This document shows, piece after piece, positions 304 through 54,952 of a stretch of DNA of 64,000 nucleotides. Position 1 is the stretch's first letter. The number at the start of each line of letters is the position of its first letter. The notes beneath the pieces are model-generated. The model saw only the letters and a program-made list of their open reading frames with translations, did no database searches and was not told the origin of the DNA. This DNA comes from Candidatus Omnitrophota bacterium (GTDB lineage Bacteria; Omnitrophota; Omnitrophia; Omnitrophales; Aquincolibacteriaceae): positions 56,385 through 120,384 of the forward strand of contig JAYTHE010000002.1 in NCBI GenBank assembly GCA_043732705.1. Reading direction: 5' to 3'. The translations under genes were made by a program, and so were the position numbers.

Positions 304-378
304 AGAACAGCCAAACCTGTCCACCTCCCGGAGGTGGACAGGTGGAAACTCAGTGAATTGTGAAGGAAAAATGATTTT

Positions 379-1566: not shown

Positions 1567-1581
1567 AATGCTGTCGAGAAA

Positions 1582-4234: not shown

Positions 4235-4239
4235 AAGCC

Positions 4240-4360: not shown

Positions 4361-4457
4361 ATTTTTGCCTGCCGGCGGTCAAAAATTTTTCTATGATGCA
4401 TTTCATTCTCGCTTCTGCAGGAAGCAAGAATGAAAAGGGTTTAAAAAAAAGGCGAAA

Positions 4458-6005: not shown

Positions 6006-6009
6006 CCGC

Positions 6010-6130
6010 TCCTTATATGCCTAATCCGCTTTAACCAGCGGTACGGGGGACCCAAGTTCTTGGGGCGAATCATCGCAAGATGAAAGGTTATCTCGACCTT
6101 AGCCCGTCAGCTAACTTCGTCGGCATCAAG
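6010..6130 (+). promoter_or_regulatory. Candidate c-di-AMP (ydaO/kimA-type) riboswitch in the 5' leader of the APC transporter gene
   Basis: The leader contains ACGGGGGACCCA and UGGGGCGAAUCA elements between the promoter and the start codon. The downstream gene has the APC-plus-C-terminal-domain architecture of KimA (YdaO), the classic gene under this riboswitch. Called from memory of the motif and not verified by a covariance model. Confidence 0.4.
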
Positions 6131-6138
6131 GAGAAAAA

Positions 6139-8151
6139 ATGGAAACCAAACAGCCGGCATCCGGCTTGCCCGAGTCATTTCTTAAACAGATCAAAAAAAC
6201 TCTTTTCGGACCGCCCCGGAATCTTCACGATCCTTCGATCAAGCATCAGCTTTCTCTGATCGCATTTTTTGCTTGGGTTGGATTGGGTGCCGACGGACTT
6301 TCTTCTTCAGCCTACGGACCGGAAGAAGCTTTTCGCGCGCTCGGTCAAAATACCTATCTCGCCATCTTGCTTGCGGCAGCGACGGCATTAACTGTGTTTA
6401 TTATTTCCTCCGCCTACAGTCGCATTATTGAAACTTTTCCTTTGGGCGGCGGAGGTTACGTTGTCGCGACCAAGCTCTTAGGAAAGCCCGCTGGCGTAGT
6501 TTCGGGCAGCGCCTTGCTAGTGGATTACATTCTCACCATTACCGTTTCCATTGCTGGTGGAGGTGACGCGCTTTTCAGCCTTTTGCCGCAAGCCTGGATG
6601 GTTTTCAAACTACCGACAGAGATTGCCGCGATCGGTCTTTTGATCCTGATGAATTTGAGAGGCGTGAAAGAATCCGTTGCCGCGCTTGTGCCGATTTTTT
6701 TGATATTTGTGATCACGCACATCGTTCTCATTTTAGGTGGACTTTTGATTCATATTCCCGAAGCACCGCGCATTGCCAAAGAAGTGACGGATGGCTTTCA
6801 TTCTGGAGCATCCACGTTGGGATGGGGCGGCATGGCGCTGCTTTTTCTACGGGCCTATTCTTTAGGCGGCGGAACCTATACCGGAATTGAAGCTGTTTCC
6901 AACGGTGTCGGTATTTTGCGCGAACCCAAAGTGATTACCGGAAAAAGAACCATGCTTTATATGTCAGTCTCACTTGCGCTCACGGCGGGCGGGTTGCTTG
7001 TCTGCTATATGCTTGCGCATGTGAAGCCGGTGGATGGGCAAACTTTGAATACGGTTCTTGCAACACAATTGATGGGCCCTCTTCATGTCGCGGGTATTCC
7101 GATCGGCCATGCGATTGTTCTAATCACAATTTTATCCGAAGCCGTTTTGCTTTTGGTCGCGGCACAAACCGGATTTATTGACGGCCCGCGCGTAATGTCC
7201 AATATGGCGCAAGATTCATGGCTGCCGAAACGTTTCGCGATGCTTTCCGACCGTTTGACGATGCAAAACGGAATTCTTCTGATTGGCGCCGCTTCGATTG
7301 CGATTCTTGTCTACACTCGCGGCCACATAGGAACCTTAGTGGTTATGTATAGTATCAATGTGTTTTTGACTTTCTCTTTATCGGAATTAGGAATGATGCG
7401 GCATTGGTTTCAAAGCCGCAAAATTTCTAAAAAATGGAAGCGTGACTTTTTGATTCAAGCCGCGGCATTTACGCTCTGCTTCTCGATTCTTTGTGTCATG
7501 GTGTATGAAAAATTTACAGAGGGCGCGTGGGTGACTTTGTTGATTACTTCTTCCTGCATCGCGCTTTGCTTCATCATTAAAAACCATTATTACAGTGTCG
7601 CGAAGCGTATCCATGAAATCGATAAATTATTTGAAGCTGTTCCGCCGGATAACCGCGCGGCAGCGATGCTAGAATTTAATGAGAAAAATCCAACAGCGGT
7701 AATTTTAGTCGGCGGACATAGCGGATTAGGCACGCATATTCTTTTGAATATTTTCAGGTTATTTCCAAGCTCATTTAAGAATGTGGTGTTTTTAACCATT
7801 GGTATTGTGGACAGTACTTTTTTTAGGGAGAACAACCAAGTTGAAGTGGTCACGAAACAAAGCGAAGACATGCTCGGGCGTTATGTCGAAAGCGCGCGTC
7901 ATATGGGTGTTCCCGCGCGGTTTGAGTTTCATGTGGGCACGGAAGTGGTACAGTCGGCCGCGGAGCTTTGCATTGAGGTTTCAAAAAAATATCCCCGCGC
8001 GGTCTTTTTTGCGGGCGAGCTCGTGTTTGAACAGCCGCAGTGGTATCACCGCATTCTGCACAATGAGACAGCGTATGCGATTTTAAGACAAATCCGGTTC
8101 GCGGGATTGCCGATGGTTATTCTTCCGATACGGATTCGAGAGAAACTCTGA
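6139..8151 (+). CDS. APC-superfamily permease with a C-terminal cytoplasmic domain, possibly a KimA-like K+ transporter
   Basis: About 12 TM segments (aa 40-470) followed by a roughly 200 aa soluble domain. A riboswitch-like leader precedes it. Confidence 0.55.
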   Translation: METKQPASGLPESFLKQIKKTLFGPPRNLHDPSIKHQLSLIAFFAWVGLGADGLSSSAYGPEEAFRALGQNTYLAILLAAATALTVFIISSAYSRIIETFPLGGGGYVVATKLLGKPAGVVSGSALLVDYILTITVSIAGGGDALFSLLPQAWMVFKLPTEIAAIGLLILMNLRGVKESVAALVPIFLIFVITHIVLILGGLLIHIPEAPRIAKEVTDGFHSGASTLGWGGMALLFLRAYSLGGGTYTGIEAVSNGVGILREPKVITGKRTMLYMSVSLALTAGGLLVCYMLAHVKPVDGQTLNTVLATQLMGPLHVAGIPIGHAIVLITILSEAVLLLVAAQTGFIDGPRVMSNMAQDSWLPKRFAMLSDRLTMQNGILLIGAASIAILVYTRGHIGTLVVMYSINVFLTFSLSELGMMRHWFQSRKISKKWKRDFLIQAAAFTLCFSILCVMVYEKFTEGAWVTLLITSSCIALCFIIKNHYYSVAKRIHEIDKLFEAVPPDNRAAAMLEFNEKNPTAVILVGGHSGLGTHILLNIFRLFPSSFKNVVFLTIGIVDSTFFRENNQVEVVTKQSEDMLGRYVESARHMGVPARFEFHVGTEVVQSAAELCIEVSKKYPRAVFFAGELVFEQPQWYHRILHNETAYAILRQIRFAGLPMVILPIRIREKL

Positions 8152-41260: not shown

Positions 41261-44200
41261 TTGATTTTTGAAAAAGATCAGTTACGTTTCCTTAAAGTTG
41301 TTTCATCTAAGAAAAAGGAATCGATCGTGCTATCCCAAAATCATTTTTTTTATTCTGCGCGTTTGCGCCGTGTTATAGCTTTTTTTCTTGTGATAGTGTT
41401 TCTTTTTTCTGACTACGCTTTTCTTCCTGCGAGCTTTGCACAAACCCTGCGTGCAACGGGTGCTGGCAATTTGTCCGCTTCGAATTTCGTTCCAATGAAA
41501 CTGGCTTTTTCTGAATCGTGGGGAAAGGTTGACGAAACGTTTAAGGGAGCTTCACAGAAAACATTAATTTTGATTCAGGACGCGCATGATTCGCTTGAAG
41601 CTCAGGAAAATATTGCGCATCTTGTTGATTATTTTGTCCGCGAGAAAAAAGTTCATACCGTTTACGAAGAAGGGCTAGAAGGCAAAGTTCCCACCGACGA
41701 TTATTTCGGTTTTATCCGCAACTCGGATGTGAAGCGCGAAGTCGCTTATTATTTAATGGATCATTTGCGTGTCGGTGGTGCTGAGTATGCGCATATTAAT
41801 CGTCACCGGCCGTTTAATTTGGTCGGAATCGATAATCATAAACTGCATGAACAAAACTTGTTCTGGTTTCGACGTGTTTTTCAAAATAGCGATGTTATTC
41901 AAAACGACTTGCGATTGCTTAAAAAACGCCTTCAAAAAATCGCCGATAAAAAATTAAACAAAAAAATAAAGAGCTGGCTCAAAGGTTATGAGCGTTATCA
42001 TCGCGGCGAAATGGCTTTTTATGATTTTCTGCGCCCCAGTGTCGATGCGCTCGGCAAGCAGCCTTTTCCGTCCAAACAGTTTCCTCAAATTCAAATCCTG
42101 CGGGAACCTTCCGATTTAGCGCAAATCAAAACACCGGAACTTTTTAAAGAAGTCGAAAGCTTTGATTCCTGGATGCTCGAAGCTTTGGGCCATAATGCTG
42201 ATGAAAAAGAACTTTTACGGCTTTTTCGACAAGTTATGCTTTTCGAAAAACTCAGCACTTTTAAGCTGACGCCCCATGAATTTAAATGGGCGCAGGAAGT
42301 TCTCAGGTCATTCAACACGCAAGCCGCCGCCAAATTTATCCACCGTGCATCTAATCAATCCGTTGTGCTTTCGACGGTTTGGGAATCTTATTTGCGCGAC
42401 GCATTACAGTTTTATGAAACGGCCTATGCGCGTGATGAGGCCGTCGAGCAAAATCTTGCGAACGGTTTTTTGAATGACAAAGAAAATGAAGCCGTGCTCG
42501 TCTTCGGCGGATTTCATAAAGATGCCATCAAAAATATTTTGCAGAGGCACGGGATTTCTTATGCTGTAATCAGTCCTAAGATCTCGGGAGTTTCGAAAAG
42601 GCATCAGGCCTATTATCAGGAAATTATGGCACATGGATATTTGAAATCAGAACTTCCGCAAGCCTTGGCGCGTGCGACGGTTCAAAACCATGTTTTTCAA
42701 ATTACTTCCCGCGAAGGTTTTCCCGCATATTTACGAAGAGTTCTGCCCCCACGTCTGTCTTCTTTGCTGCCTTTGACAATCGCACGTTCTGAACAACGCG
42801 ATAACGGTATCGAACGTGTGGACTACCCTGACTCCCATTTGCGCATTGCCATGGCGCAAATCAATACAACCGTCGGAGATTTTGAAGGCAATTATCGTAA
42901 AGCTTTAGCATCGTATGAAAAGGCGCGCACTCAAGATGTGGATGTGCTTGTTCTGCCCGAGCTAACTATTTCCGGTTATTTGCCGGAAGACTTGGTCAAT
43001 AAAGAACATTTTGTGCGCCAAAACAAAGAAACATTGCATTTGTTTGCGAAACAGATTCAAGACATGACGGTGGTGATCGGATTTATTGATTCCGATGATC
43101 AGGGTAATTTGTATAACGCCGCCGCGGTGATCTCAGACGGTGAAGTCAAACATGTTTATCATAAATGGGATTTGCCGAATTACGGCGTGTTTGACGAAAA
43201 ACGAAATTTTACCGGCAAAGAAACAACGATTTTCACTCCCGGACACACGCCATTTGTTTTTACGGTTAAAGGTTTGCCGGTGGGCCTTAATATTTGTGAA
43301 GACATATGGAATGACCGCGGTCGCGGACTCAATGTGTATGAAGAAGAAGCCAAGTTGGGCGCAAAATTACAAATCAATATTTCAGCGTCTCCTTTTCATG
43401 AACAAAAACTGGATCAAGTCCGCTTAGATTTGTTGCGAAAAAGAGCCGCGCAAACAGGTTCCATTATTCTTTATGCGAATTTGGTGGGGGGACAAGATGA
43501 GGTTGTTTTCGACGGTGGCAGCATGATTATGACTCCGCAAGGAGAGTTGACTGCGCGTGGAGCCCAGTTTCAAGAAGACCTCGTTATTACGGACGTTGAT
43601 TTAAGCCGTTCGAATAATCAGCCTCATGCGGATGCGCTTTTCCCCGCAATGAGCCCGTCGCAAAACAGCAGCCGTAAGGTTCCGCTCGAAAAACGTGAAT
43701 TAACACCGCCGCTTTCGGCAATTGCGGAAGATTACGAAGCGATGGTTCTCGCGACGCGTGATTATTTAAGAAAAAGTGGTTTCAAAACAGTGGTTTTGGG
43801 TTTGAGTGGCGGAATTGATTCGGCGGTTGTCGCTGCCATTGCACGTGATGCGATTGGTGCTGAAAATGTGAAAGGCATTTCGATGCCGACACAATTTAAT
43901 AGTGAAGGCACGAAAAGCGATGCGCGCATAACCGCCGAAAAGCTTGGGATTAAATTTGAAGAGAATCCGATTCAGAACTTGTTTAGCCTGTTTCTAAGCA
44001 CGGTCGAAGGTAACGCCAAGACAGGCTTTGTGGCGACATTTTATGCCTTTTTACGCTGGTTTTCTATGATGCCCAAATTTGGACATTGGTTTCAACGTTT
44101 TTCCCTCGTCGGTTTTTCAGCGTTCGGAATTTCAGAAGAAAATATGCAAGCTCGCATTCGGGGCATGATGTTAATGCGTGAATCCAACAAAAATGGCTCG

Positions 44201-47200
44201 TTGCTTTTGACCACCGGCAATAAAAGTGAAACGGCAGTGGGTTATGCAACTTTATATGGAGATATGGCAGGCGGATTTGCACCGATTAAAGATGCCTATA
44301 AAACTAGAGTATTTGATTTTGCACGGTATGTGAATCAGCGCGATGCTAGAGAAGTGATCCCTGTGAGCACAATTGACAGACCGCCTTCCGCGGAATTAAA
44401 CAAAGACCAAAAAGATGAAGATGCGCTGCCGCCTTATGTGACGGAGCTTGATCCGATGCTCAAGCTTTATCTTGAAAAAAATGCCCCGGCTGAAGATTTG
44501 GCAGTTGTTGCCGGAATGAAACAGGCTTTAACAGAGAAGGGCATTTATTCGGAGGAGAAACATCGGCTTTTTGCGGACGAAGTTTTCACAACGGGCAATT
44601 TGATCCAGGCGCTTGCGAAACTTCGGGCGCAGCTTGGCAACCCCAATGACGAGCCCTTTTCCAGTCTTAAGGAAAGAGCCGCAGAATTAGGCTCCAAAAA
44701 AGCGCATGATGTGATTCGCCGCGTTGATTTAAATGAATATAAACGTCGGCAGGGACCTCCGGGAGTTAAATTAACACCGACCGCCTTTGGTAAAGACCGG
44801 CGCATGCCCATCGTGAATACTTATCGTCAAAGAGGGGTTGAAGATTTTTTACGCCGTGATGGCGCACCCCGAGCTGTAACAGTTAAAAAAGAAGACGCCG
44901 CGCTGATTGTCGGAAAATTCGCGCCTTTTCATAACGGCCATGAATCTTTGATTAGGCAGGCATTAAATGAAAATGAAAAAGTAGTTGTTTTGGTTTATGA
45001 CCATCCCGAATTAATTAATATTTCCGCCACTGAAATGGCTGAAATGATTACAAAAATTATTAACAACGAGCGTTTGACGGTCATTCCTGTTTATGGCGCC
45101 CCTCCGGCCGGAGATTCCCGGGAAGCACGTCAAGCGCATCTTGATTTCATGAAACGGCAATTGCCGCCCAATATTCATGTTACCAAGGTTTATAACAATG
45201 AATGGTATGGCAAAGATATTGCGAATGGATTAAATGCGGAAATTATTCAACCCGATCCTAAAAGAACGCAGATTGGTATTTCTGCAAAAAAAATCCGTCA
45301 AGATCCCACTTCGCTTGCGGAAGCCCATGTGCATCCGGATATGTGGGAGCGATTGCAAAAATCAGGAACTAAAATGTGGGCGGTTCCGGATCAGGAAAGG
45401 CTTTACCGTGAAGGCATGGATGCAAGTTTTGTTGATCGGTCCATGGACGAAGCTGAGAAGGTAAGAATCCGCGCAAGTATTGAGGCTAAAAATCCAGGCT
45501 ATGCAGATAAGGCTAAGCTTTTCGCACCCGTCAAATGGGATCCGGCAACGTACGAAAGTGAAAACCTTCCTTCAGTTGTTGGCAATCTGAGAGATCACGC
45601 CACATTCAGCCAGCAACGCGGTGTGCGTATTTTGGATTTATTAATCCGCGATCCTAAAAAAGGCTGGGCCATTCCGAAAGTTCTTGAGCCTTTCCGCGAA
45701 GCGATTCAAATGGCGGTGGAACATGAACGCGCGATCAACCCTGATTTTGATGAATTGCATGTTTACGTGACGATTGACCAAAAGAAAGTCGAGCCGGATA
45801 AATTTCAACGCCGTCCCGGCGGGCATGCCGATGCTTTTCCGACGAAAGAAACCAACAACATTTCATCGGAGCTTGTTTTGGATGACACCTACATCATGTC
45901 GGACCGGCCTGAAATTTCGACATGGCTCATGCCCGGACCTTTTCCGGTCAAGGATGTTGATTTGAATGATGATGAAGCCGTTTTGAAGCGTTTTGATGAG
46001 GTCGGACAAAAGCAAATCGCAGCCGGCAAAGCAAAGCAAATGCCCGCGTTTCAAATGATTCGCATGACGCCCTATGACATTCATGCGGTTGCGCAAAATA
46101 AGACAGGCCATCCGATTGAACGTACCTTTATCAAGGTGCAATTCAGCCGCGACCGTTTGAACATGATGGGCAATACCTTGAACCGCGTTGAAGATAAAAA
46201 GGGCACGCCTGTTTTTGATTATTCGGATTGGACATGGATTCCCCGCAAACAGGGGGTGCGTAATAACCGTAACAGTATTCTTGGTTGGAATCGCGCGGAT
46301 GCGGATCAATTTCTTGAAGTGGATCCTTCCAAAATTGATTTTAATCAGGGTAAAGTGGCTTTTGATTGGGCTGAGCCTGAAGTTTTATTTATTAAAAAAA
46401 TTGAGGGCGTGCATGCCGAGCCCGCGATTGAGGGCGAAGTTTTAGAGACAAAGGTCAATGGGGATATCGTCACTTTCAATATCGCGCAAAAAGGCGACCG
46501 AAAAATTACCACGAGCCAGGGCGATCAATATTTTTTAAGCGATGAAAAATTTAGAGACCGTTACTTTGCGGATGAAGGCAAAGACGGTTTTTATCAGCCG
46601 CAAGCGCAGGTTGCGCGAGCTATTCGTATTATAAAACCGATTCGTATTCGCTCTTCTTGGGGTGCCTGGCAATATTTGTCTGTGGGCAGTGTTCTCGTTA
46701 GTACACACGCCGATCATGCTTACGGCATTCATAAAGATAATTATGAAGCGTCTTATCGCCGCACCGATGCTGAAGGCAATTTTCTGAGTGAACAATTATT
46801 GAATCCTGATCAGGTTGTTTCAGCAGATGTTTCGCCGGCTCTTAAAGGACAAATCGAGAGTCTTAATCCTGCTCATTCAACAGATAATCTTTTTGGTGTG
46901 GCCAAATGGGATGTCGCCGGATTCAATGAACCGCATTTACCGGTAGTCATCAGCGACACACTTTCAAATCGTGACAATGTCAGCTATTTTGAAGGTGACA
47001 CAGGTATACGCTACTTGGACCTTTTAATTTATGCCCCCGGCCAGGGGTGGGCCATTCCAAAAAATTTGGAACCGTTTATAGAACCGATTCGTTTAGCTTA
47101 TGAAGCAGAACGTTTAGCGAACCCTGCTTTTAAAGAACGGTTCATTCATATTACCGTTGATCAAAAAACAGTGCCAATAGACAAGCCCGGGCGCAGACCA

Positions 47201-50200
47201 GGATTGCATGCGGATGCCGGTTTGAAAGATGCGAATGGCCGTTCAATCGATGTGCTGGCTGAAAATCGCAGAGAGATTGAAGCGATGCGCGGCAAGTCGT
47301 CGGATCATGCGTATGTTTTTTATGATAAATTACCGACGGAATTTTATCCCGGGCCTTTTCATTTGGAACAAGCCGCTGACGGCGCCACTTTTGAATCTTT
47401 GGTTCCTCCCGGACAAACGCCCGTTACTTATCCGAAATTTACTTTGCTGCGGCTGAATGCTTTTGATGTACACACATCCACAATCAATCAAACCGGTGAG
47501 TCACAAAAACGGACATTTTTTAAACTTCAATTTACCGAACGCCTTTTGGACCGCCCAAATAATTCAATCAATTCCTTTTTGAATTATGACCGTGCCCGCG
47601 CGGTTTCAGTACAGCGCTCCGAACAGCGTTCAAACATGAGCCGTGAGGATGCGCTCGCGAATATTGCGAGATTGAATGCTGCGCGTCCAAAGGGTTACCC
47701 GGAAAGAAGCTTGAATCTTACCAAGCCTTATACTGCGCCGATTGTTTATAAAAATGCGCGTTCGAAGAAAAATCCTTATGGTTGGGCGCATCCTGATTTA
47801 AGCGACTCAAAAATTTCCGCGGCTGATAGACACCGTGCAATTGAAACATTGCGTGCCCATATTATGCGTTTTGATGAGCAGTTTGATCTAAGAACCGATT
47901 TTGATCCGGAAACGGGTTTGCCGGTTAACGATGCTGAAACCGGCTTGAACGGCAGAGGATCACTTGGGCGACATGGACCCAATCCGGCTGAAGATGCGAT
48001 TTTTTTGCGTTATAACAAAGCGGGTGAGTTGGAGGTTTTGGTGATTGAAAGAAATGACGGCGGCGGCCGGGCTTTGCCGGGCGGCATGATCAAGGAAGGG
48101 GAAGAAAATTTAGTCGGTGTGACATCAACTCGAGAATTAGAAGAAGAAACTAAGCTTCAAATTGATATGACGAAAGGTGTGGTTGTTTTTCGCGGGAAAG
48201 CGAATGAATGGCGCGATACCAATGATGCATGGATGGTGACACGAGGTGTGGCAGTTTTGCTTTCATGGGAAGAGTCCCAGCATTTAAAACCGCACGCAGG
48301 AAGTGACGCCAAGAAAAAGACTGCGCGCTTTGTTAAAGTTACCGACAATATGGGGCTTTACGCGCATCATCAAATTAATGTGAATAATGCCGTTGCGATG
48401 GTGAGAAATGGACAGCTTCAAACTTCAGATGAGGCTATCAACAAAAATATACCGGCTGTAGATATCACCATTACAGACATTGAAGAGGCCTATGAATTAT
48501 TCAAGGCGGGCAAAGGAAAAGTGTCAGAAAGTTACGATTTAATTGTGCCCGAAACTCCGCATGGCGGGGGCTATGCCGTTTTCGCGGGGCTTGAAGAAAC
48601 ACTTTCTTCAATTCGCCGCCGTCGATTTACACCTGATCACATCGCGGCTTTGCGCAAAATGGAAACTTTTTCAGAAGACTTTTTAAAATTTTTACAGCAA
48701 TTTACATTTGAAGGCGATTTGGATGCTTTGCCGGAAGGATCGGTTGTTTCACCGAAAATTCCTTTAATGCGTATTCAAGCCACGCCCGTGGAAATGGCGC
48801 TTTTAAAAGGTTTGATTCAAAACCGAATTGGTTTTAGTACGAATATTGCGACAAAGACTGCCCGAATTACTCAAGCGGCTAATGGTGATTTCGTGACTCC
48901 CGAGGCAATGGAACGTTTGCGCAAGAAAGACGGACTCGCTCCCGAGCAAGTCAAAAAAATACGCCCCGTTTCGGATTTTGGTCAGCGTCGAGGGCAGGGT
49001 AAAGGTTCGCTTGTCGCATCCCTCGCGGCAATTATTGGCGGAGCTATTTCGACTTCGTTTGTAAAAGCGGCAAAGCAGTTTTTCTTGAATGCAAGCGGAA
49101 CGATGGCGCATCTTTTTATCTCGTCTTTTCCGGCAAAATTAGAAATTATGGCTTTTCGTATTTGGGGAAAAATTTATCCGAAGACCTCTATTTTCCTGCT
49201 CGACACCTATGATTCAATTGAAGCGACAAAAAAAGCAATTATTGTCGCAAAAGAAATGGTCTTAAACGGAGGGCAGCTTTTTGGCGTTCGCTTAGATAGC
49301 GGCGATTTAGTGGTGCTATCGCGCACGATTCGAAAAATGCTGGATGATGCCGACCTTCACTATGTCAAAATTTTCGCGACGGATGATTTGGATGAATTTA
49401 AAATTACCGACATTTTATCAAAAGGCGCGCGCATTGACGGATTTGGCGTTGGCACGAATTTAATCACGGGCGGTAAACAAGCTACCTTAAAGTTGGAGTT
49501 TGTTCCATCTCATGGCGAGCGTTATTGGCGCGCGCGGCATCAAGGGCAATTTACGCGTTATGTGCGCACTGACAGAGACCGCGTGGCGCATGCGAGCTAT
49601 GGTGAAGAAATGACGGAGTTGCTCCGCCCCTTTTGGCGCAAGGGCCAACGTGTTCAAGATGCTAAAAAGCCCTGGAAAGCGCATGAGCGTGCAATTGATG
49701 AGCTTAGGCAATTTAAGCCCGAAAATAAAAAATTAGAAAACGCAGCCACGATTCCCGTTGAAGACCAAAAAAATCCTTTGACGATTAACCCCGAAACAGA
49801 TGCCATTATTTCGATTGACGCCACAAAAGCATTTATGAAAAAGGGTGGTTTGCCGGTGAAAGATGGCGACGATGTTGTTGCGCCCATCAAATTGCTCTTA
49901 CGGCGCTTTCCGAAAAATCGGCGTTTTGCGGCTGTAGACAAACATCCGCGTGGACATATATCTTGGGCAAGCTCTTTTGTCGGAACTCCACCCATGACTT
50001 ATTTAACTTATGAAGAGGTTGAAAAGTGGACGGATGCAAATCATAAAATTGGGCCGAATGCTAAATTTGACTTAGCGCAGCTTAAAGAAAAACTTAAAAG
50101 AATTGGCGGGCAAATGCTATGGCCCGATCACGCTGGAGAAAACACTCCGGAGTCGGAGCTGCATCCTGATTTTCTGGAAAGCGATTTTGAATATATTGAA

Positions 50201-53200
50201 GTTAAGGGTATGGATCCCGCGACAGATTCTTACAGTGCCTTTTTTGATAATGACGGCAACCCCACGAAATTGGCGCAAGAGCTTAGAAAGCGGGGAATTA
50301 AGCGAGTTTTTGTTATGGGCTTGGCCTATGATTATTGCGTGGGCTGGTCAGCCGAAGGCGCGCATAAATTAGGATTTGAAGTTGTTGTTGTAAAAGATGG
50401 TACGCGCCCGGTTGGTTTTCCTGCGGATAGTATTTCAAAAATGGATGCATCTTTTGCGGCAAAAGAAATTCCGGTTGTTTCGACTCAGGATGTTCTTGAT
50501 GCCAACGATTATCGTGGTGTCAACATGGCCAAGATGCTTGAAACCCCGATTGCGCACCCTGATTTTCCGGAAGAAGAAGATAGCTCCGCGCTTGAAGAAG
50601 ATATGTACCACATTACGATGGGCCAAACGCTGTTTCTTGAAAACTTACATAATCAGCCGGCGACTTTTGATTATTTTTATCGTGCTGCGCCTTATGGTCA
50701 GGATCACATCACGGTTTCAGGTTTGCGTTTCCTTCTTGAAGAATTAAAAAAATTCCGTTTTACTGAAGAGCAAATTCAATATCTAGCGAACATTCACAAG
50801 TTGAGCAGTGCTTCGGAGCTTGATCCAAAATATGTTGCTTACTTGCGAAATTATCGCTTCCAAGGTGATATTTCAGGCTTGCCTGAAGGCAGTGTGGCTT
50901 ATCCGAATGAACCGATTTTGACGGTCAAAGGCACGCTTTTTGACACCATGATCATTGAGACATTGATTCTGAAGACAATGAATTTTGGTGGGTTGATTTC
51001 AACTTGGGCAAGTTTGGAAAGACAACAAAAAGGAAATAATGCTCGTTTGATTGCGACCGGTCTTGAGGGCGCGCATGGAATTGCTCATAGCAGAGCAGCC
51101 TATGCGGCCTTTATTGCGGGCATCGACGCGACAGACGATTTTGATGCCGCAATGCGTTATGGAATTCCGTTAGCTGGCCCTCGCCAAAAGGGAACAAGAT
51201 TGGGCGCGGATCTTTTGACCGGTGGACCGAAATCTTCTATGGGCGGGGTTTATAAATTAGTTCATATAAATAAACGTGGTGTTGTTAAGTTGAGTGAGAA
51301 CGCGGCTAAAACATCGTTGCCCGGGAATAAAGTTATTGTTGAAGTTGTGGACAAAACCACGGGAAAAGTATTGCGTCGGTTGAAAAAGTTACAAAGTGAA
51401 AAGCTTGAGTTGGCCGCGAATGAAAAAATTAGAGTTCGATCCATTCCGCTTGTACACAAGGGCGAAGCCATTTATTCCGTACCAGATCCTTTTGAGGTTC
51501 GTGCTTATCGCGACGCGGATGCGGCGCGCCTCAAAGACATTAAAGCGTCGGAAGTTTCTCCGCGCATGGCGGCTTTCCAGAAAAAGCTCATTGATCGCAT
51601 TCATGGCCGATCTGAGCAGCGCAAGCCGCATCCGAATGTTCAGGAATCCGAATTATCAGAGGGCGAGGTAGATCAACTTTATGCTTTCTCAAAATCAATG
51701 ATGGAGCAAGCGCGAAGTATTTTGGATGAGTTTATTGTGCGGGGGTTTGGTCAATCAAAAAAAGATGATGGTAGTGTCTTGACCGATATTGACCCTGCAA
51801 TTCAACAGCGTGTTTTAGAAATGGTGCGTGAAAGATTCCCGGCGCATTATGTGCTCGCGGAAGAAAAATTGACTTCGGCTGAAGCGAGAGAGAATGACGC
51901 TTTAAAAAACTCCGATTATAAGTGGGTAGTTGATCCAATTGACGGGTCTCGAATTCTCGGAGAGGGTAATAATTATTACGCTATCTCGATCGCCCTGTAT
52001 TTCAAGGGAAAACCGGTGCTAGGATTAGTTTATTCGCCTTTCTTGGGCGGTTTTTTAGAAACTTCGCAGAATGAACCGCATGTCACCTTAAATCATATGC
52101 CGATTGTGCTTGATCCGAAGGCGGCTTTGCCTAAAACCCTCAAAACGATTATTCCGGGCACGACTCCCTACTCTGAGAATTTTAGAGAGGCCCTATTGGA
52201 TGATACTAGGCTGCGCCAAGCAGGCGTTCAAAAGATTGAAACACAAGTGGTGATCCGTTCCGCAGTGGTTAACCTGGCCAATATTTTACGTAGCCGTTAC
52301 GACTTATTTGCCAATATCGGCGAAAAGGAAATGAATATTTGGGATATTGCCGCGGCAGGCTATCTTCTGCAAAAAGCTGGGCGCAGCATGCTTGTTTCGC
52401 GTGGCGGTAAGTGGGAAAATGCTCTCGAAGTTTTTAGACATGATTTGACTTCGACGCAAACTATGAGTGGTTATCATTTTATAGCTGGATCCGACGCTGT
52501 TTTGGCCCATGTGCAAGCCATTTTGAGTCCGAGCGGTACACCCGTGAACAGTAGCCAATTACCCAGAGATGTCGAAACTGTTTCAAACCGAGTGATCTCG
52601 CACGATAAGCCCTTCGCGGCGGTATTCGATTTTCATGGAACCTTGGTAGAAACTACATGGAAAAATGAATTTGCGCTTGCGTATGACCAGGTGAAAAAAG
52701 TTGGTATGGCTGCCGCGCTTGCATGGGTTGAAAAAAACGCGCATCAAGATTTACGAGTTTTTATGCCCGCGCAGCTTGGAATGAAACAGTCTGAATTTTT
52801 AAAAATTTTGGCGGTAGCACAGGAAGAGTCTCGTGAAAACTATTTTCCGCGACTGCTTGACGGCGCGCGTGAAATGGTTCAGGCGCTTTTGGAAAGAAAT
52901 GTGCCTGTTTTTATTCTTACGGGGTCGCCGAGTGAGGTTGTTTTAAAACAGCTTGAGCAAGCGGGCCTGCTTGATTTAATTCCTAAAGAAAACATTATTA
53001 CTCGAGATCGCATTGAGCAATCCACCGGTAAGGTTCAAGGATCGCTCAAAGATGCGGCGATTTCAAGTCTTCAAACGCAGCTTCCTAATCACCGCTTTTT
53101 ACATTTTAGCGATTCACCGGGTGGATTCGAATCAATTCACCAAATCGAGGGTTTTAATTTTGGGCGCGTGGATGGCGAAGGCCAGGAAAGGGTCGCTAAG

Positions 53201-54952
53201 CGGGAAAGGATGGTTGGAAGTCAGGCTGATTTCTTGTTGAACGCTGGGTTTAAGCATTGGCGAGAGCTAATTGATTTTCTGAAAATTAAAACAGCGTTGC
53301 AATACCAAGCTCCCGTGCTTGCGACGACCAGTGATGAGGCCGTTGAAGTCCCGTTTATTTTGCCGGCAAAGCGGAATGGTGGATTGGCCCTCCACATTTT
53401 TGTCAGTGACGATCTGAAGGAGGTTACTTATTCGGAAGTGCTTGACGATTCTCAAGTTTATGGCAAAGAGGGTGCTGTAGATTATACGAAACTTAAACTT
53501 AAAAAAATCGCTACGTTTCCAAGCTCTTACCTTATTTCTCCATCCAAACAAATTGCGGTACTTTCGCCGCCGGAAGTTTTAGACGCGATCGGGCGTGTTT
53601 GGCCCCAACATAAACGCTATACGACTTATCGTGGCGTCACGACATCGTGGGATCAAGAGGAAGACATTAATGTTTGGTCATTCAACATTGATAGCGGTTA
53701 CCTGCTTAAGGTTTTGCATGAAGCCGGGTTGCTCAACGAGACTGTCAAAAAAGCCGCTGAAGTGGGCGTGGGCGGCGGACAGGTTTCCGCCGATATTGTC
53801 GCAGCGCTGCCTCATTTGGAGGAAATGACGTTCTCCGATATTAGTTTGTATGCTTTGCGCGCCGCAAAGGCAAACATTTTGCCGTGGATTAAGAAGAAAC
53901 TCATACGGCTTAGGACTTTTCTTGGAAAAGGTATTAAAGCCTTTCCGAAAGATTTAGATTTGTTGATTGTCAATCCGCCTTATATTCCCACATCGCCATT
54001 TGAAAAAAGACCCACGAACGATCCTTATCGAGGTACCGGGTTGATTCATGAAGTGATTCAAGACGGTTTTAGGCATTTAAATCCTGCGAATCCTAAGGCA
54101 GCGGTTGTGATGAATGTAAGCTCTTTGGCCGCACAGGATTTTGAGCGTTATCAGCAAGAGTTTTCAGCGCAAGTTGAAATTTCGCCGATTGGGGAGCCTT
54201 TACTTGTGCCGCTTAAAATTCGTACGATTTCAGAAGAGTGGAAGCGGTGGTTGGTTGAAAATGGAATGCTTGAAAGACGCCCCACGACCAAGCTAGGCGA
54301 AGAGGAATATTGGCACCGGATTCAAGCCTATGTCATTCGCCCCAAGGCGAATGTGCGTTCGGAACAACGTTTAGCAGATAGTCAGCCTGTAACTATTTTT
54401 CAATCCAAGCCTGTTCGTGCTTCTGCAGTTGAAGGGGTTTTTGTAGCTCCTATTACAGTGCTTGTTGATGCGCGTGACTTTGCCGCTTTTAATTCGGAAC
54501 AGAAGCAAGAGTTTTTTAAGTTGTTCGAAAAATATCAAGGGCAACAGCATTTGAAATTTATCTTTGAAAATATAGCAGCTTTAAACGAACAAGATCCTGT
54601 CGCTGCTGAATTACGGGATTTTGCAGGGCAATATCCACGTTTGATTGAAACGCGCAATCAATCCCTAGATAGGTTGGCACTTCCGAAAACAGCGGTGATT
54701 ATGGTTTCAAAAGAGGGGCTGGATAACGCGGCTCGGGAAAGTATGATCCGAAGCAGTGTGCCCCAGCACTTGATCGTTTCATATAAAAGACAAAATATCT
54801 CCGCAGGGTTAATTACAGCGGCACTTTTATTGTTTCAATCGGAACGGTATCAAGCTTATCAAAACCGGTCACTTTCAGAAGTTCCGAGTGATTTACAAGC
54901 TCAAGTATTTGAGATTTTGGAAAGCTTTGTTTATATTGGGCGTTCGGCTTAA
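41261..54952 (+). CDS. Giant 4563 aa multidomain protein fusing the NAD biosynthesis, salvage and turnover enzymes, with an N-terminal TM anchor
   Basis: A single uninterrupted 13,692 nt ORF. Recognisable domains are listed as separate 'other' features below. Confidence 0.85.
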   Translation: MIFEKDQLRFLKVVSSKKKESIVLSQNHFFYSARLRRVIAFFLVIVFLFSDYAFLPASFAQTLRATGAGNLSASNFVPMKLAFSESWGKVDETFKGASQKTLILIQDAHDSLEAQENIAHLVDYFVREKKVHTVYEEGLEGKVPTDDYFGFIRNSDVKREVAYYLMDHLRVGGAEYAHINRHRPFNLVGIDNHKLHEQNLFWFRRVFQNSDVIQNDLRLLKKRLQKIADKKLNKKIKSWLKGYERYHRGEMAFYDFLRPSVDALGKQPFPSKQFPQIQILREPSDLAQIKTPELFKEVESFDSWMLEALGHNADEKELLRLFRQVMLFEKLSTFKLTPHEFKWAQEVLRSFNTQAAAKFIHRASNQSVVLSTVWESYLRDALQFYETAYARDEAVEQNLANGFLNDKENEAVLVFGGFHKDAIKNILQRHGISYAVISPKISGVSKRHQAYYQEIMAHGYLKSELPQALARATVQNHVFQITSREGFPAYLRRVLPPRLSSLLPLTIARSEQRDNGIERVDYPDSHLRIAMAQINTTVGDFEGNYRKALASYEKARTQDVDVLVLPELTISGYLPEDLVNKEHFVRQNKETLHLFAKQIQDMTVVIGFIDSDDQGNLYNAAAVISDGEVKHVYHKWDLPNYGVFDEKRNFTGKETTIFTPGHTPFVFTVKGLPVGLNICEDIWNDRGRGLNVYEEEAKLGAKLQINISASPFHEQKLDQVRLDLLRKRAAQTGSIILYANLVGGQDEVVFDGGSMIMTPQGELTARGAQFQEDLVITDVDLSRSNNQPHADALFPAMSPSQNSSRKVPLEKRELTPPLSAIAEDYEAMVLATRDYLRKSGFKTVVLGLSGGIDSAVVAAIARDAIGAENVKGISMPTQFNSEGTKSDARITAEKLGIKFEENPIQNLFSLFLSTVEGNAKTGFVATFYAFLRWFSMMPKFGHWFQRFSLVGFSAFGISEENMQARIRGMMLMRESNKNGSLLLTTGNKSETAVGYATLYGDMAGGFAPIKDAYKTRVFDFARYVNQRDAREVIPVSTIDRPPSAELNKDQKDEDALPPYVTELDPMLKLYLEKNAPAEDLAVVAGMKQALTEKGIYSEEKHRLFADEVFTTGNLIQALAKLRAQLGNPNDEPFSSLKERAAELGSKKAHDVIRRVDLNEYKRRQGPPGVKLTPTAFGKDRRMPIVNTYRQRGVEDFLRRDGAPRAVTVKKEDAALIVGKFAPFHNGHESLIRQALNENEKVVVLVYDHPELINISATEMAEMITKIINNERLTVIPVYGAPPAGDSREARQAHLDFMKRQLPPNIHVTKVYNNEWYGKDIANGLNAEIIQPDPKRTQIGISAKKIRQDPTSLAEAHVHPDMWERLQKSGTKMWAVPDQERLYREGMDASFVDRSMDEAEKVRIRASIEAKNPGYADKAKLFAPVKWDPATYESENLPSVVGNLRDHATFSQQRGVRILDLLIRDPKKGWAIPKVLEPFREAIQMAVEHERAINPDFDELHVYVTIDQKKVEPDKFQRRPGGHADAFPTKETNNISSELVLDDTYIMSDRPEISTWLMPGPFPVKDVDLNDDEAVLKRFDEVGQKQIAAGKAKQMPAFQMIRMTPYDIHAVAQNKTGHPIERTFIKVQFSRDRLNMMGNTLNRVEDKKGTPVFDYSDWTWIPRKQGVRNNRNSILGWNRADADQFLEVDPSKIDFNQGKVAFDWAEPEVLFIKKIEGVHAEPAIEGEVLETKVNGDIVTFNIAQKGDRKITTSQGDQYFLSDEKFRDRYFADEGKDGFYQPQAQVARAIRIIKPIRIRSSWGAWQYLSVGSVLVSTHADHAYGIHKDNYEASYRRTDAEGNFLSEQLLNPDQVVSADVSPALKGQIESLNPAHSTDNLFGVAKWDVAGFNEPHLPVVISDTLSNRDNVSYFEGDTGIRYLDLLIYAPGQGWAIPKNLEPFIEPIRLAYEAERLANPAFKERFIHITVDQKTVPIDKPGRRPGLHADAGLKDANGRSIDVLAENRREIEAMRGKSSDHAYVFYDKLPTEFYPGPFHLEQAADGATFESLVPPGQTPVTYPKFTLLRLNAFDVHTSTINQTGESQKRTFFKLQFTERLLDRPNNSINSFLNYDRARAVSVQRSEQRSNMSREDALANIARLNAARPKGYPERSLNLTKPYTAPIVYKNARSKKNPYGWAHPDLSDSKISAADRHRAIETLRAHIMRFDEQFDLRTDFDPETGLPVNDAETGLNGRGSLGRHGPNPAEDAIFLRYNKAGELEVLVIERNDGGGRALPGGMIKEGEENLVGVTSTRELEEETKLQIDMTKGVVVFRGKANEWRDTNDAWMVTRGVAVLLSWEESQHLKPHAGSDAKKKTARFVKVTDNMGLYAHHQINVNNAVAMVRNGQLQTSDEAINKNIPAVDITITDIEEAYELFKAGKGKVSESYDLIVPETPHGGGYAVFAGLEETLSSIRRRRFTPDHIAALRKMETFSEDFLKFLQQFTFEGDLDALPEGSVVSPKIPLMRIQATPVEMALLKGLIQNRIGFSTNIATKTARITQAANGDFVTPEAMERLRKKDGLAPEQVKKIRPVSDFGQRRGQGKGSLVASLAAIIGGAISTSFVKAAKQFFLNASGTMAHLFISSFPAKLEIMAFRIWGKIYPKTSIFLLDTYDSIEATKKAIIVAKEMVLNGGQLFGVRLDSGDLVVLSRTIRKMLDDADLHYVKIFATDDLDEFKITDILSKGARIDGFGVGTNLITGGKQATLKLEFVPSHGERYWRARHQGQFTRYVRTDRDRVAHASYGEEMTELLRPFWRKGQRVQDAKKPWKAHERAIDELRQFKPENKKLENAATIPVEDQKNPLTINPETDAIISIDATKAFMKKGGLPVKDGDDVVAPIKLLLRRFPKNRRFAAVDKHPRGHISWASSFVGTPPMTYLTYEEVEKWTDANHKIGPNAKFDLAQLKEKLKRIGGQMLWPDHAGENTPESELHPDFLESDFEYIEVKGMDPATDSYSAFFDNDGNPTKLAQELRKRGIKRVFVMGLAYDYCVGWSAEGAHKLGFEVVVVKDGTRPVGFPADSISKMDASFAAKEIPVVSTQDVLDANDYRGVNMAKMLETPIAHPDFPEEEDSSALEEDMYHITMGQTLFLENLHNQPATFDYFYRAAPYGQDHITVSGLRFLLEELKKFRFTEEQIQYLANIHKLSSASELDPKYVAYLRNYRFQGDISGLPEGSVAYPNEPILTVKGTLFDTMIIETLILKTMNFGGLISTWASLERQQKGNNARLIATGLEGAHGIAHSRAAYAAFIAGIDATDDFDAAMRYGIPLAGPRQKGTRLGADLLTGGPKSSMGGVYKLVHINKRGVVKLSENAAKTSLPGNKVIVEVVDKTTGKVLRRLKKLQSEKLELAANEKIRVRSIPLVHKGEAIYSVPDPFEVRAYRDADAARLKDIKASEVSPRMAAFQKKLIDRIHGRSEQRKPHPNVQESELSEGEVDQLYAFSKSMMEQARSILDEFIVRGFGQSKKDDGSVLTDIDPAIQQRVLEMVRERFPAHYVLAEEKLTSAEARENDALKNSDYKWVVDPIDGSRILGEGNNYYAISIALYFKGKPVLGLVYSPFLGGFLETSQNEPHVTLNHMPIVLDPKAALPKTLKTIIPGTTPYSENFREALLDDTRLRQAGVQKIETQVVIRSAVVNLANILRSRYDLFANIGEKEMNIWDIAAAGYLLQKAGRSMLVSRGGKWENALEVFRHDLTSTQTMSGYHFIAGSDAVLAHVQAILSPSGTPVNSSQLPRDVETVSNRVISHDKPFAAVFDFHGTLVETTWKNEFALAYDQVKKVGMAAALAWVEKNAHQDLRVFMPAQLGMKQSEFLKILAVAQEESRENYFPRLLDGAREMVQALLERNVPVFILTGSPSEVVLKQLEQAGLLDLIPKENIITRDRIEQSTGKVQGSLKDAAISSLQTQLPNHRFLHFSDSPGGFESIHQIEGFNFGRVDGEGQERVAKRERMVGSQADFLLNAGFKHWRELIDFLKIKTALQYQAPVLATTSDEAVEVPFILPAKRNGGLALHIFVSDDLKEVTYSEVLDDSQVYGKEGAVDYTKLKLKKIATFPSSYLISPSKQIAVLSPPEVLDAIGRVWPQHKRYTTYRGVTTSWDQEEDINVWSFNIDSGYLLKVLHEAGLLNETVKKAAEVGVGGGQVSADIVAALPHLEEMTFSDISLYALRAAKANILPWIKKKLIRLRTFLGKGIKAFPKDLDLLIVNPPYIPTSPFEKRPTNDPYRGTGLIHEVIQDGFRHLNPANPKAAVVMNVSSLAAQDFERYQQEFSAQVEISPIGEPLLVPLKIRTISEEWKRWLVENGMLERRPTTKLGEEEYWHRIQAYVIRPKANVRSEQRLADSQPVTIFQSKPVRASAVEGVFVAPITVLVDARDFAAFNSEQKQEFFKLFEKYQGQQHLKFIFENIAALNEQDPVAAELRDFAGQYPRLIETRNQSLDRLALPKTAVIMVSKEGLDNAARESMIRSSVPQHLIVSYKRQNISAGLITAALLLFQSERYQAYQNRSLSEVPSDLQAQVFEILESFVYIGRSA
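41366..42800 (+). other. Giant-ORF N-terminus: a TM/signal-anchor helix (VIAFFLVIVFLFSDYAFLPASFA) followed by a roughly 450 aa unassigned domain
   Basis: Hydrophobic helix at aa 36-60. No confident family match. Confidence 0.4.
42830..44520 (+). other. Giant-ORF domain: glutamine-dependent NAD+ synthetase (NadE) as a CN-hydrolase/nitrilase domain plus an NAD-synthase PP-loop domain
   Basis: CN-hydrolase motifs LVLPELTISGY and the catalytic Cys context LNICEDIW. An NAD synthase SGGIDS PP-loop and TTGNKSETAVGYATLYGD follow. Confidence 0.8.
44880..45400 (+). other. Giant-ORF domain: NMN/NaMN adenylyltransferase (NadM/NadR-type nucleotidyltransferase)
   Basis: The (H/T)xGH motif appears as GKFAPFHNGHESL, together with the ISAKKIR-type second motif. 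Confidence 0.7.
45615..47560 (+). other. Giant-ORF: a duplicated unassigned domain of about 180 aa (copies at 45615-46165 and 47000-47560) separated by a beta-rich spacer
   Basis: Paralogous segments: G(V/I)R(I/Y)LDLLI..P..GWAIPK.LEPF and ..TVDQK.V..DK..RRPG.HADA. I recognise no family. Confidence 0.4.
47940..48340 (+). other. Giant-ORF domain: Nudix hydrolase, ADP-ribose pyrophosphatase-like
   Basis: GRHGPNPAEDAIF and the Nudix box ALPGGMIKEGEENLVGVTSTRELEEETKL. Confidence 0.7.
48500..49510 (+). other. Giant-ORF domain: type II phosphoribosyltransferase of the NAPRT/NAMPT superfamily, copy 1
   Basis: LLDTYDSIEA, GVRLDSGDL and GFGVGTNL motifs. Confidence 0.65.
49795..50500 (+). other. Giant-ORF domain: nicotinamidase / isochorismatase-like cysteine hydrolase (PncA)
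   Basis: IISIDATKAF carries the Asp, a Lys lies in the mid region, and VFVMGLAYDYCV carries the catalytic Cys. Confidence 0.7.
50590..51560 (+). other. Giant-ORF domain: nicotinate phosphoribosyltransferase-like (PncB-type), copy 2
   Basis: An N-terminal MYHITMGQ box of LTM type, a central PRTase barrel and a C-terminal VKLSENAAKTSLPGNKV tail typical of NAPRTases. Confidence 0.6.
51700..52520 (+). other. Giant-ORF domain: inositol-monophosphatase/CysQ-family phosphatase, a candidate NADP or PAP phosphatase
   Basis: DGSVLTDIDP, WVVDPIDGS and WDIAAAGYLL IMPase motifs. Confidence 0.65.
52600..53260 (+). other. Giant-ORF domain: HAD-superfamily phosphatase
   Basis: Motif I FDFHGTLVET (DxDGT type) and motif III ILTGSP. 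Confidence 0.6.
53560..54350 (+). other. Giant-ORF domain: SAM-dependent methyltransferase with an NPPY motif (HemK/N6-amino MTase class)
   Basis: A glycine-rich VGVGGGQVS SAM loop and LLIVNPPYIPT. Confidence 0.6.

Follow-up and report, generated by a model that had tools for sequence, protein, structure and literature searches.

Textbooks describe the type II phosphoribosyltransferases, which include the nicotinate phosphoribosyltransferases (NAPRT), the nicotinamide phosphoribosyltransferases (NAMPT) and QPRT, as obligate homodimers whose subunits share their active sites. Here we analyse two NAPRT-family domains, called copy 1 and copy 2, which lie on either side of a nicotinamidase (PncA) within a single open reading frame (ORF) of a Candidatus Omnitrophota bacterium (GCA_043732705.1). 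The window that we studied is a stretch of 64,000 nucleotides of contig JAYTHE010000002.1 (positions 56,385 to 120,384), and all positions given below are counted within it. We found in the literature no relevant account of a tandem or pseudo-dimeric NAPRT, or of NAD salvage in Omnitrophota.

The systems closest to this pair are the dimer-type NAPRTs (2F7F/4MZY, 4YUB; TIGR01513/PRK09243). Both copies share their fold and subfamily, and the pair shares their residue set jointly. In the known dimer-type enzymes, two like subunits, each with a full residue set, make up a homodimer whose two sites are equivalent. The subunits of the canonical dimer lie head-to-tail, and each active site combines the alpha/beta barrel of one with the N/C-terminal 'sandwich' domain of the other. 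The human structure is such a head-to-tail dimer and shows the N-terminal domain of one monomer touching the barrel of the other (PMC4442680). The human active site takes Y21 and K396 from monomer B, and R171, H213, S214 and R318 from monomer A (PMC4442680). The changes Y21A, R318A and H213A impair the human enzyme, according to mutagenesis cited in the same study, and the equivalent residues in Enterococcus faecalis are Y17, K333, R163, H205, S206 and R262 (PMC4442680). Unlike these enzymes, the pair in the window is fused, its halves are only 19-28% identical within one protein and reciprocally degenerate, and around 130 columns of the copy 2 barrel have been lost. Since the halves are reciprocally degenerate, the pair could have at most one site.

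Dimer-type NAPRTs (4YUB, 2F7F, 1YTD) have been set apart from monomer-type ones (PMC10907753). The same study offers a parallel from Xanthomonas NAMPT, in which a domain-B mutant mixed with domain-A mutants regained activity after subunit exchange (PMC10907753), so a heterodimer with one good composite site can work. The single intact site built from domain-A-defective and domain-B-defective subunits is the same as the one considered here, but the Xanthomonas case is a laboratory mix of homodimer point mutants, whereas the present pair is natural, fused and conserved, and carries a large deletion. A nicotinamidase and a NAPRT are likewise found in one chain in NAPRT-PncA and PncA-NAPRT fusions of Bacteroidota, Legionella and others (P0006-P0023, P0056, P0062), which presumably couple the conversion of nicotinamide into nicotinate and then nicotinate mononucleotide (NaMN). 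These fusions differ from our pair in having one complete NAPRT, which still needs to homodimerise, and no complementary second copy. Tandem duplication of a domain within one chain, with the halves then specialising into a catalytic and a non-catalytic one, reportedly occurred in RsmC. Its fold and chemistry are unrelated, and here neither NAPRT copy is sufficient by itself, since subunits shared the active site already in the ancestor.

Two NAPRT copies with complementary residue sets

A sequence-only reading of the window had proposed that two domains of the NAPRT/NAMPT superfamily flank a nicotinamidase at about 48500-51560. This arrangement stands, with limits refined to 48446-51607 (Table 1) and domain matches far beyond chance. 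Copy 1 matches NAPRTase_N (E-value 2.7e-16) and NAPRTase (2e-06) of Pfam, the NCBIfam models NF006695 (1.1e-94) and TIGR01513 (3.5e-90), and the PDB sequence 2F7F (4.3e-48). Copy 2 matches NAPRTase_N (2.4e-30), TIGR01513 (1.3e-58) and 2F7F (9.9e-28). Among the Pfam families, PF17767 matches both copies, and PF04095 and PF17956 match copy 1 alone. The three motifs previously read in copy 1 (DTYD, GVRLDSGDL and GFGVGTNL) are all present in frame on the + strand of one ORF, as are the LTM-like box (LEEDMYHITM) and the NAPRT-type C-terminal tail of copy 2.

The best matches of both copies, by sequence (2F7F, 4YUB) and by fold, are dimer-type NAPRTs. With TIGR01513 (cut-off 297.4), copy 1 scores 303.1 bits, narrowly above the cut-off, and copy 2 scores 199.0, below it. 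Both are below the cut-off of NF006695 (469; 317.8 and 198.6 bits, respectively) and that of TIGR01514, the model of the monomer-type PncB of E. coli and yeast (269.55; 29.5 and 48.6 bits). Foldseek searches with AlphaFold models placed the E. faecalis NAPRT on top (4MZY/2F7F, E-value about 3e-35, template modelling (TM) score 0.76-0.78), followed by human and archaeal NAPRTs, with NAMPTs far lower (about 6e-17). The succession of N-terminal domain, barrel and C-terminal domain that characterises the 2F7F/4YUB fold is present in copy 1 and in the pair as a whole.

We used MAFFT to align 17 copy-1, 18 copy-2 and 6 canonical sequences. The relatives with both copies came from a word-indexed search (five) and from an exhaustive profile search over 1.84 billion representatives (twelve further 50%-identity clusters), whose scores show a sharp step down from 663 bits to the 457 bits of the first canonical NAPRT-PncA fusion. 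The copy 1 family keeps G.RR, the His of GT.AH, RLD and GVGT in all 17 sequences, and mostly keeps DTYD. The LxTDxYxxTM (D.Y) box is found in none of the 17, the N-domain Arg is usually Pro, the GGVYK (K396) position is without a conserved Lys, and the K.S..K.T.PG.K hairpin is deleted. In the copy 2 family, the D.Y pair (18/18), the N-domain Arg (18/18) and the Lys of GV[YF]K (17/17) are kept, and so is most of the hairpin motif. The Arg pair is gone, some 130 alignment columns with GT.AH, DTYD, RLDSGD and DLDE are deleted, and GVGT is degenerate; in copy 2 of the relative P0053 even the barrel remnant is absent. When aligned to 2F7F, copy 2 covers residues 2-203 and restarts at about 310, and copy 1 covers residues 27-152 and 156-330. 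Judged from these alignments, the copies are reciprocally degenerate, each being without the opposite half of the catalytic residues.

Mapped onto human NAPRT (hNAPRT), copy 1 has the monomer-A set minus the Ser: R171, H213 and R318 are kept, the last one as R2677 in GVRLDSGDL, and Y21, K396 and S214 are missing. Copy 2 has the monomer-B set: Y21 and K396 are kept, D3114 and Y3116 of LEEDMYHITM being equivalent to D19 and Y21, and R171, H213, S214 and R318 are missing. Hence, the NAPRT residue set, Ser excepted, is complete only when the two copies are counted together. Because each copy has lost the other's residues, the copy 1 barrel and the copy 2 sandwich domain make up the only site that could be assembled. 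These positions also stand out by their conservation. Only 24 of the 345 columns of copy 2 are invariant (7%), and they include D3114, Y3116, R3141, G3329, V3330, K3332, K3343 and K3350. Copy 1 has 47 invariant columns out of 426, among them R2576, R2577, H2617, D2648, T2649, R2677-D2679 and G2729-T2732. Pairs of copy 2 sequences are on average 39% identical and pairs of copy 1 sequences 48%, and the two identities correlate (r = 0.82). As the divergence of copy 2 tracks that of copy 1, we conclude that copy 2 is under purifying selection and not decaying. Copy 1 also carries an insertion of 29 residues between the scaffolding helix and the first barrel strand. It is modelled by AlphaFold2 (AF2) as two short helices and is found in most relatives, being short or absent in P0005, P0047, P0050 and P0053.

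The domain between the two copies matches Isochorismatase of Pfam (1.9e-14), the nicotinamidase model NF008623 (2.5e-33) and the Acinetobacter baumannii nicotinamidase 2WT9 (2.7e-25), to which it is very close in fold (TM score 0.93-0.95). The Asp-Lys-Cys triad and the Asp/His/His metal site that characterise PncA enzymes are conserved when it is aligned with 2WT9. An insertion of about 35 residues relative to 2WT9 probably explains why the NF008623 score (115.7) stays under the cut-off (174).

Table 1. Positions of the NAPRT-PncA-NAPRT module, of its motifs and of other features in the window.
Feature	Nucleotides	Strand	Residues	Remark
NAPRT copy 1	48446-49774	+	2396-2838	putative barrel donor
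ITITDIEEAYELF	48464-48502			copy 1; stands where the LxTDxYxxTM box is lost
DLIVPETP	48536-48559			copy 1; Pro for the N-domain Arg
29-residue insertion	48884-48970		2542-2570	copy 1
FGQRRGQG	48977-49000			copy 1; R2576/R2577 = hNAPRT R171/R172
SGTMAHLF	49094-49117			copy 1; H2617 = hNAPRT H213
DTYD	49202-49213	+	2648-2651	copy 1
GVRLDSGDL	49283-49309	+	2675-2683	copy 1
GFGVGTNL	49439-49462	+	2727-2734	copy 1
TLKLEFVPS	49484-49510			copy 1; Val for K396
PncA nicotinamidase	49775-50542	+	2839-3094	
IISIDATKAF	49805-49834			PncA; Asp
VDKHPRGHIS	49934-49963			PncA; Asp/His/His
LWPDHAG	50117-50137			PncA; His
VKGMDPATDSYSAF	50201-50242			PncA; Lys (KGMD..DSYSAF)
GLAYDYCVGW	50318-50347			PncA; Cys nucleophile
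NAPRT copy 2	50543-51607	+	3095-3449	putative sandwich-domain donor, atrophied barrel
LEEDMYHITM	50591-50620	+	3111-3120	copy 2; LTM-like box, DMYHITM from 50600
FDYFYRAAP	50666-50692			copy 2; N-domain Arg R3141
ATGLEGAHG	51053-51079			copy 2; Arg pair lost
GIPLAGPRQKGTRLGADLLTGG	51161-51226			copy 2; deletion junction, GT.AH, DTYD, RLDSGD and DLDE gone
C-terminal tail, SMGGVYKLV...VVKLSENAAKTSLPGNKVIV	51236-51340	+		copy 2
SMGGVYKLV	51236-51262			copy 2; K3332 = hNAPRT K396
VVKLSENAAKTSLPGNKVIV	51281-51340			copy 2; kept, part of the C-terminal tail
NUDT9-like Nudix	47648-48445	+		probable ADP-ribose pyrophosphatase; Pfam NUDIX 7.6e-08
RELEEET	48131-48151	+		Nudix box, intact
Host ORF	41261-54952	+	1-4563	
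N-terminal segment	41261-41443		1-61	sole hydrophobic segment at residues 29-61
RSEQR (four copies)	42785-42799, 47615-47629, 51608-51622, 54356-54370	+	2119-2123 (second), 3450-3454 (third)	all at module boundaries
GFVATFYAFLRWFSMMPKFGHWFQRFSLVGFSAF	44009-44143		917-961	insertion in the NAD synthase domain
Duplicated domain, first copy	45467-46183		1403-1641	
PGDYG-like stretch	46478-46756		1740-1832	PF14083, 18.6 bits, below cut-off
Duplicated domain, second copy	46841-47572		1861-2104	
Module 3' of the NAPRT pair	51677-53983			
Inositol-monophosphatase-family domain	51677-52408			
HAD hydrolase	52616-53128			
Small methyltransferase domain	53699-53983			NPPY motif
Cyclic di-AMP riboswitch	6008-6140	+		RF00379, 85.5 bits, E-value 1.7e-18
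670-residue ORF	6139-8151			directly 3' of the riboswitch

A proposed fused pseudo-heterodimer and its alternatives

We propose, with a probability of about 0.7, that the pair is a covalently fused, asymmetric pseudo-heterodimer of the dimer-type NAPRT known from E. faecalis and humans, with one composite active site and with PncA in the same chain. The two copies would meet at a putative interface where the copy 1 barrel would supply the residues for phosphoribosyl pyrophosphate (PRPP), nicotinate and the ATP-dependent phosphohistidine, and the copy 2 sandwich domain would add the stacking Tyr, the Lys that binds phosphate and, probably, an Arg. The opposite combination, copy 2 barrel with copy 1 sandwich domain, would have been given up on both sides. 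The fused PncA would turn nicotinamide into nicotinate, the presumed substrate, beside the single NAPRT site presumed to be active, where channelling may take place. We modelled the chain of 1054 residues from copy 1 to copy 2 with AF2, using an alignment of 30 sequences made of tandem-family members, canonical NAPRTs and fusions. The resulting model is compact and confident, with a mean predicted local distance difference test (pLDDT) of 89.1 and a predicted TM score (pTM) of 0.79; the barrel remnant of copy 2 has a pLDDT of about 90. A pTM of this size over three modules indicates that their relative placement is predicted with confidence, which is consistent with an intramolecular assembly.

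Several points weigh against this proposal. The pTM speaks for confident packing, not for which packing, and the head-to-tail geometry that would bring Y3116 and K3332 close to R2677 and H2617 is putative. A model made with 6 sequences was poor (pLDDT 67, pTM 0.56), and in the 30-sequence alignment the canonical sequences fell mostly on copy 1, so that copy 2 and the interface were modelled from few sequences. Copy 1 retains a reduced sandwich domain of its own, and among the 16 sequences that cover the K396-equivalent position two have Lys and two Arg. The equivalent of Ser214 in copy 1 is Leu, Ala or Phe, and never Ser, and substrate handling may differ from that of canonical NAPRTs. The signal-peptide-like N-termini of most family members sit uneasily with the PRPP and ATP requirement of such an enzyme. 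Finally, monomer-type NAPRTs with intramolecular capping exist (PMC10907753).

The sequence-only reading had allowed for one copy being a non-catalytic paralogue. This is right in so far as copy 2, having lost its barrel motifs, cannot catalyse alone; it is at odds with the invariance of the residues that copy 2 would donate, which shows that it is no relic. One can still think of copy 2 as a structural or regulatory remnant that, for instance, scaffolds PncA, senses a ligand or acts as a spacer, with copy 1 acting alone or as a homodimer between two giant chains. Every catalytic motif of the barrel is gone from copy 2, which evolves faster than copy 1, and copy 1 by itself exceeds the TIGR01513 cut-off; the existence of monomer-type NAPRTs (PMC10907753) also makes it conceivable. 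We nevertheless regard it as unlikely. The Tyr, Asp, Arg and Lys taken from the partner's sandwich domain are missing in copy 1, so its site would be incomplete in a monomer or a homodimer (PMC4442680). Moreover, the same residues are invariant in copy 2 when so few of its columns are, and the pair is kept even where PncA lies elsewhere or is absent. Very unlikely, in our view, is a single composite site whose specificity has moved off nicotinate, for instance towards another pyridine carboxylate or another base. The Leu, Ala or Phe in place of Ser214 in 17 of the 17 copy-1 sequences, the variable equivalent of Leu170 (Q/L/F) and the family-specific insertion of 29 residues beside the first barrel strand would fit such a shift. 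It is harder to square with the nicotinate-producing nicotinamidase that is fused, and looks intact, in 16 of the 17 members with both copies, with the Ala that the plant NAPRT P0034 also has at the Ser position, and with the invariance of R2677, which binds nicotinate by its carboxylate (role from PMC4442680).

Two further explanations seem extremely improbable to us. The sequence-only reading had suggested that one copy acts on nicotinamide (NadV/NAMPT-like) and the other on nicotinate (PncB-like), with both salvage routes in one chain. There are indeed two domains of the superfamily in one chain, and the Pfam family PF04095 spans NAPRT and NAMPT. Yet the top-scoring models, TIGR01513 and NF006695, are shared by the two copies and are of the NAPRT kind, neither copy is NAMPT-like, and NF006629 (cut-off 405) gives copy 1 14.8 bits (E-value 0.009) and copy 2 no match. 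We take NF006629 (PRK09198) to be of the NAMPT/NadV type, although the library labels it 'nicotinate phosphoribosyltransferase'. The Asp that recognises the amide is D219 in human NAMPT and D203 in the Xanthomonas enzyme (Xcc), and Asp219 corresponds to Ser214 of human NAPRT (PMC4442680, PMC10907753). There is no Asp at this position in either copy: it is Leu in copy 1 (SGTMAHL; Leu, Ala or Phe among its relatives) and is deleted in copy 2. NAMPT structures rank far under NAPRT structures, the catalytic barrel is missing from copy 2, and a direct nicotinamide route would be redundant given the fused PncA. The suggestion had itself named a shared subfamily with identical substrate-determining residues, or one copy without catalytic residues, as contrary evidence, and the barrel loss in copy 2 is just that. 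Since model scores, fold ranking and the specificity residue all speak against it, a split between the two salvage routes is unsupported. No more credible is the idea that the pair is an artefact, either an assembly chimera or a functionless, decaying pseudogene fusion. The metagenomic source, the unusual length of the ORF and the internal deletion in copy 2 might raise this suspicion, but the ORF runs over 13.7 kb without a stop and with a uniform composition, conservation is position-specific, and the architecture recurs, at 35-57% identity, in 16 or more further 50%-identity clusters that come from independent samples, with three Omnitrophota genomes among them. The fused pseudo-heterodimer is thus the reading that we retain.

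Distribution and origin of the pair

Copy 1 precedes copy 2 in all family members. PncA lies between the copies in the window protein, P0001-5, P0044-49 and P0053, and 5' of both in P0050-52; it is absent from the protein P0055 (808 residues). Where the copies are adjacent, a linker of about 40-60 residues, partly of low complexity, joins them. The copy 1-copy 2 pair is therefore a conserved unit. Among the relatives that we found, it is confined to multi-enzyme NAD-salvage proteins, in which the same set of domains is shuffled and joined by additional Nudix modules, PRPP synthetase and histidine phosphatase. Scanning GTDB with one genome for each species revealed only three loci with the tandem pair, all in metagenome-assembled genomes of Omnitrophota. 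The closest one (L001) has an ORF of at least 3394 residues with NadE, Nudix, NAPRT1, PncA, NAPRT2 and inositol-monophosphatase (IMPase)-like domains. The family is thus small and apparently restricted to Omnitrophota.

In a neighbour-joining tree of the shared N-terminal region (190 columns), the copies form two clades with long branches and high bootstrap support (99 for copy 1, 100 for copy 2) that are not sisters. Each copy is 27-38% identical to canonical NAPRTs. The separate long-branched clades and the low identity between the copies rule out a recent tandem duplication, and the pair goes back either to an old duplication or to a fusion of two NAPRT lineages. We found no split halves encoded as separate genes among the next-best matches (P0056, P0062, P0094), which are all complete canonical NAPRTs. 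A doubled N-terminal NAPRT region, with two equal hidden Markov model matches each, was also seen in two NAPRT entries of Lonchura striata (P0024, P0029); these are probably artefacts of gene models or assembly, unrelated to the bacterial pair.

The host ORF, its presumed NAD pathway and possible processing

The ORF that holds both NAPRT copies and PncA has an even GC content (0.43-0.46). A version with a later GTG start, 22 codons downstream, is the database entry P0043, which has 4541 residues and is otherwise identical. Pfam scans of the whole ORF and of separate segments of it identified 14 families at E-value ≤ 0.01, corresponding to about ten distinct domains. These are arranged in five modules: an N-terminal signal or anchor with a domain of no known family; NadE (CN_hydrolase and NAD_synthase), an NMNAT-like domain and a duplicated domain that is likewise of no known family; the NUDT9-like Nudix followed by NAPRT copy 1, PncA and NAPRT copy 2; an IMPase-like domain with HAD and a small methyltransferase; and a C-terminal domain without a recognised family. 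CN_hydrolase and NAD_synthase together make a glutamine-dependent NAD synthetase according to Pfam, and the cytidylyltransferase-like domain is NMNAT-like, with a GKFAPFHNGH motif. The first NAPRT copy also has a match to NAPRTase_C, and the IMPase-like domain is a match to Inositol_P. The best PDB sequence match of the Nudix domain is the human ADP-ribose pyrophosphatase NUDT9 (1Q33, 2.2e-14), followed by the NUDT9-H domains of TRPM2.

These domains suggest a recycling pathway, whose assignment rests on the established functions of the enzyme families. The Nudix domain would split ADP-ribose into AMP and ribose-5-phosphate, and the NMNAT-like and NadE modules would finish the Preiss-Handler route from NaMN to nicotinate adenine dinucleotide and NAD. 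We infer that both products of NAD consumption, nicotinamide and ADP-ribose, would be handled by the module that the second and third RSEQR motifs enclose. PRPP synthetase-like modules (Pribosyltran_N) are found in the relatives P0045, P0050 and P0052, the first of which also has the histidine-phosphatase domain. Relatives with such a module could lead from ADP-ribose through ribose-5-phosphate and PRPP to NaMN on one polypeptide.

Other parts of the ORF are less easily classed. The NAD synthase domain contains a strongly aromatic, hydrophobic insertion that splits the Pfam alignment. The inositol-monophosphatase-family, HAD and methyltransferase domains 3' of the NAPRT pair may take part in NAD(P) metabolism, one conceivable role being that of an NADP or NaMN phosphatase. 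The duplicated domain of the second module, about 240-260 residues long, shows 35% identity between its copies (E-value 2e-44) and has a motif, RRPG.HADA, conserved in both; it has no Pfam match, and a PDB sequence search with residues 1330-2118 gave none either. Between its copies lies a weak, sub-cut-off match to PGDYG, and a sequence resembling this stretch is visible by eye in P0051 and P0052. Elsewhere in the window we noted a cyclic di-AMP riboswitch directly 5' of an ORF of 670 residues.

The four RSEQR motifs all stand at module boundaries, the second and the third being the N-terminal and C-terminal boundaries of the Nudix-NAPRT1-PncA-NAPRT2 module. There are none in the six frames of the window outside the ORF. 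Their codons differ from copy to copy, which rules out a DNA or RNA repeat. The more general RSExR occurs seven times in the L001 ORF (6-10187) and four times in P0001, where about 0.1-0.2 would be expected, and is not found in the more distant relatives of the family. The Nudix-NAPRT1-PncA-NAPRT2 block is free of internal RSExR, which would fit a need for this block to remain whole. The motif is a candidate processing (protease) site or linker signature. A signal-peptide-like start, with a basic stretch followed by a hydrophobic core, is seen in 13 of 18 family proteins (the window ORF, P0002, 3, 5, 44, 45, 47, 48, 49, 51, 52, 53 and 55). Export or membrane anchoring would be surprising for salvage enzymes that use ATP, PRPP and glutamine. 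The relative P0051 (4960 residues) carries an intramembrane protease domain of the Rce1-like CAAX type (PF02517, 7.7e-07, residues 875-987), which could be relevant to the self-processing of these long proteins.

The ORF can be compared with the giant proteins described in Omnitrophota (bioRxiv 10.64898/2026.06.07.730766, 10.1101/2023.11.21.568195), which also have many enzyme domains on one chain and an N-terminal signal or anchor. It has the traits of the class 1 giants (10.64898/2026.06.07.730766), namely a tiling of enzyme Pfam domains, the N-terminal segment and an Omnitrophota host. It differs in size, with 4.6 thousand residues versus at least 80 thousand in the highlighted giants, and in that its domains all belong to one pathway. 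Neither of the two papers mentions NAD salvage, nicotinate or NAPRT ('nicotin' occurs 0 times). As a speculation that we consider quite unlikely, the ORF might be an exported or membrane-anchored NAD-recycling polyprotein, cut at RSExR by a site-specific protease into pathway modules, among them the single-site NAPRT heterodimer together with PncA and the ADP-ribose pyrophosphatase. Host-dependent Omnitrophota would use it at or in a partner cell to collect ADP-ribose and nicotinamide and to make NAD from them again outside their own cytoplasm.

NAMPT and NAPRT are drug targets. If the pair is a pseudo-heterodimer, it would be a natural evolutionary experiment that separates the residues contributed by each NAPRT subunit, and it would indicate that one composite site is enough and that most of the second barrel is dispensable. 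The annotation of such proteins, now labelled just "nicotinate phosphoribosyltransferase" or "NAD+ synthase", would be corrected. The pair sits in a single-chain line for NAD recycling, with ADP-ribose pyrophosphatase, nicotinamidase, NAPRT, NMNAT and NAD synthetase, to which relatives add PRPP synthetase. In a phylum suspected of host dependence, these chains with signal-peptide-like starts may offer a testable handle on the role and the processing of the giant proteins of Omnitrophota.

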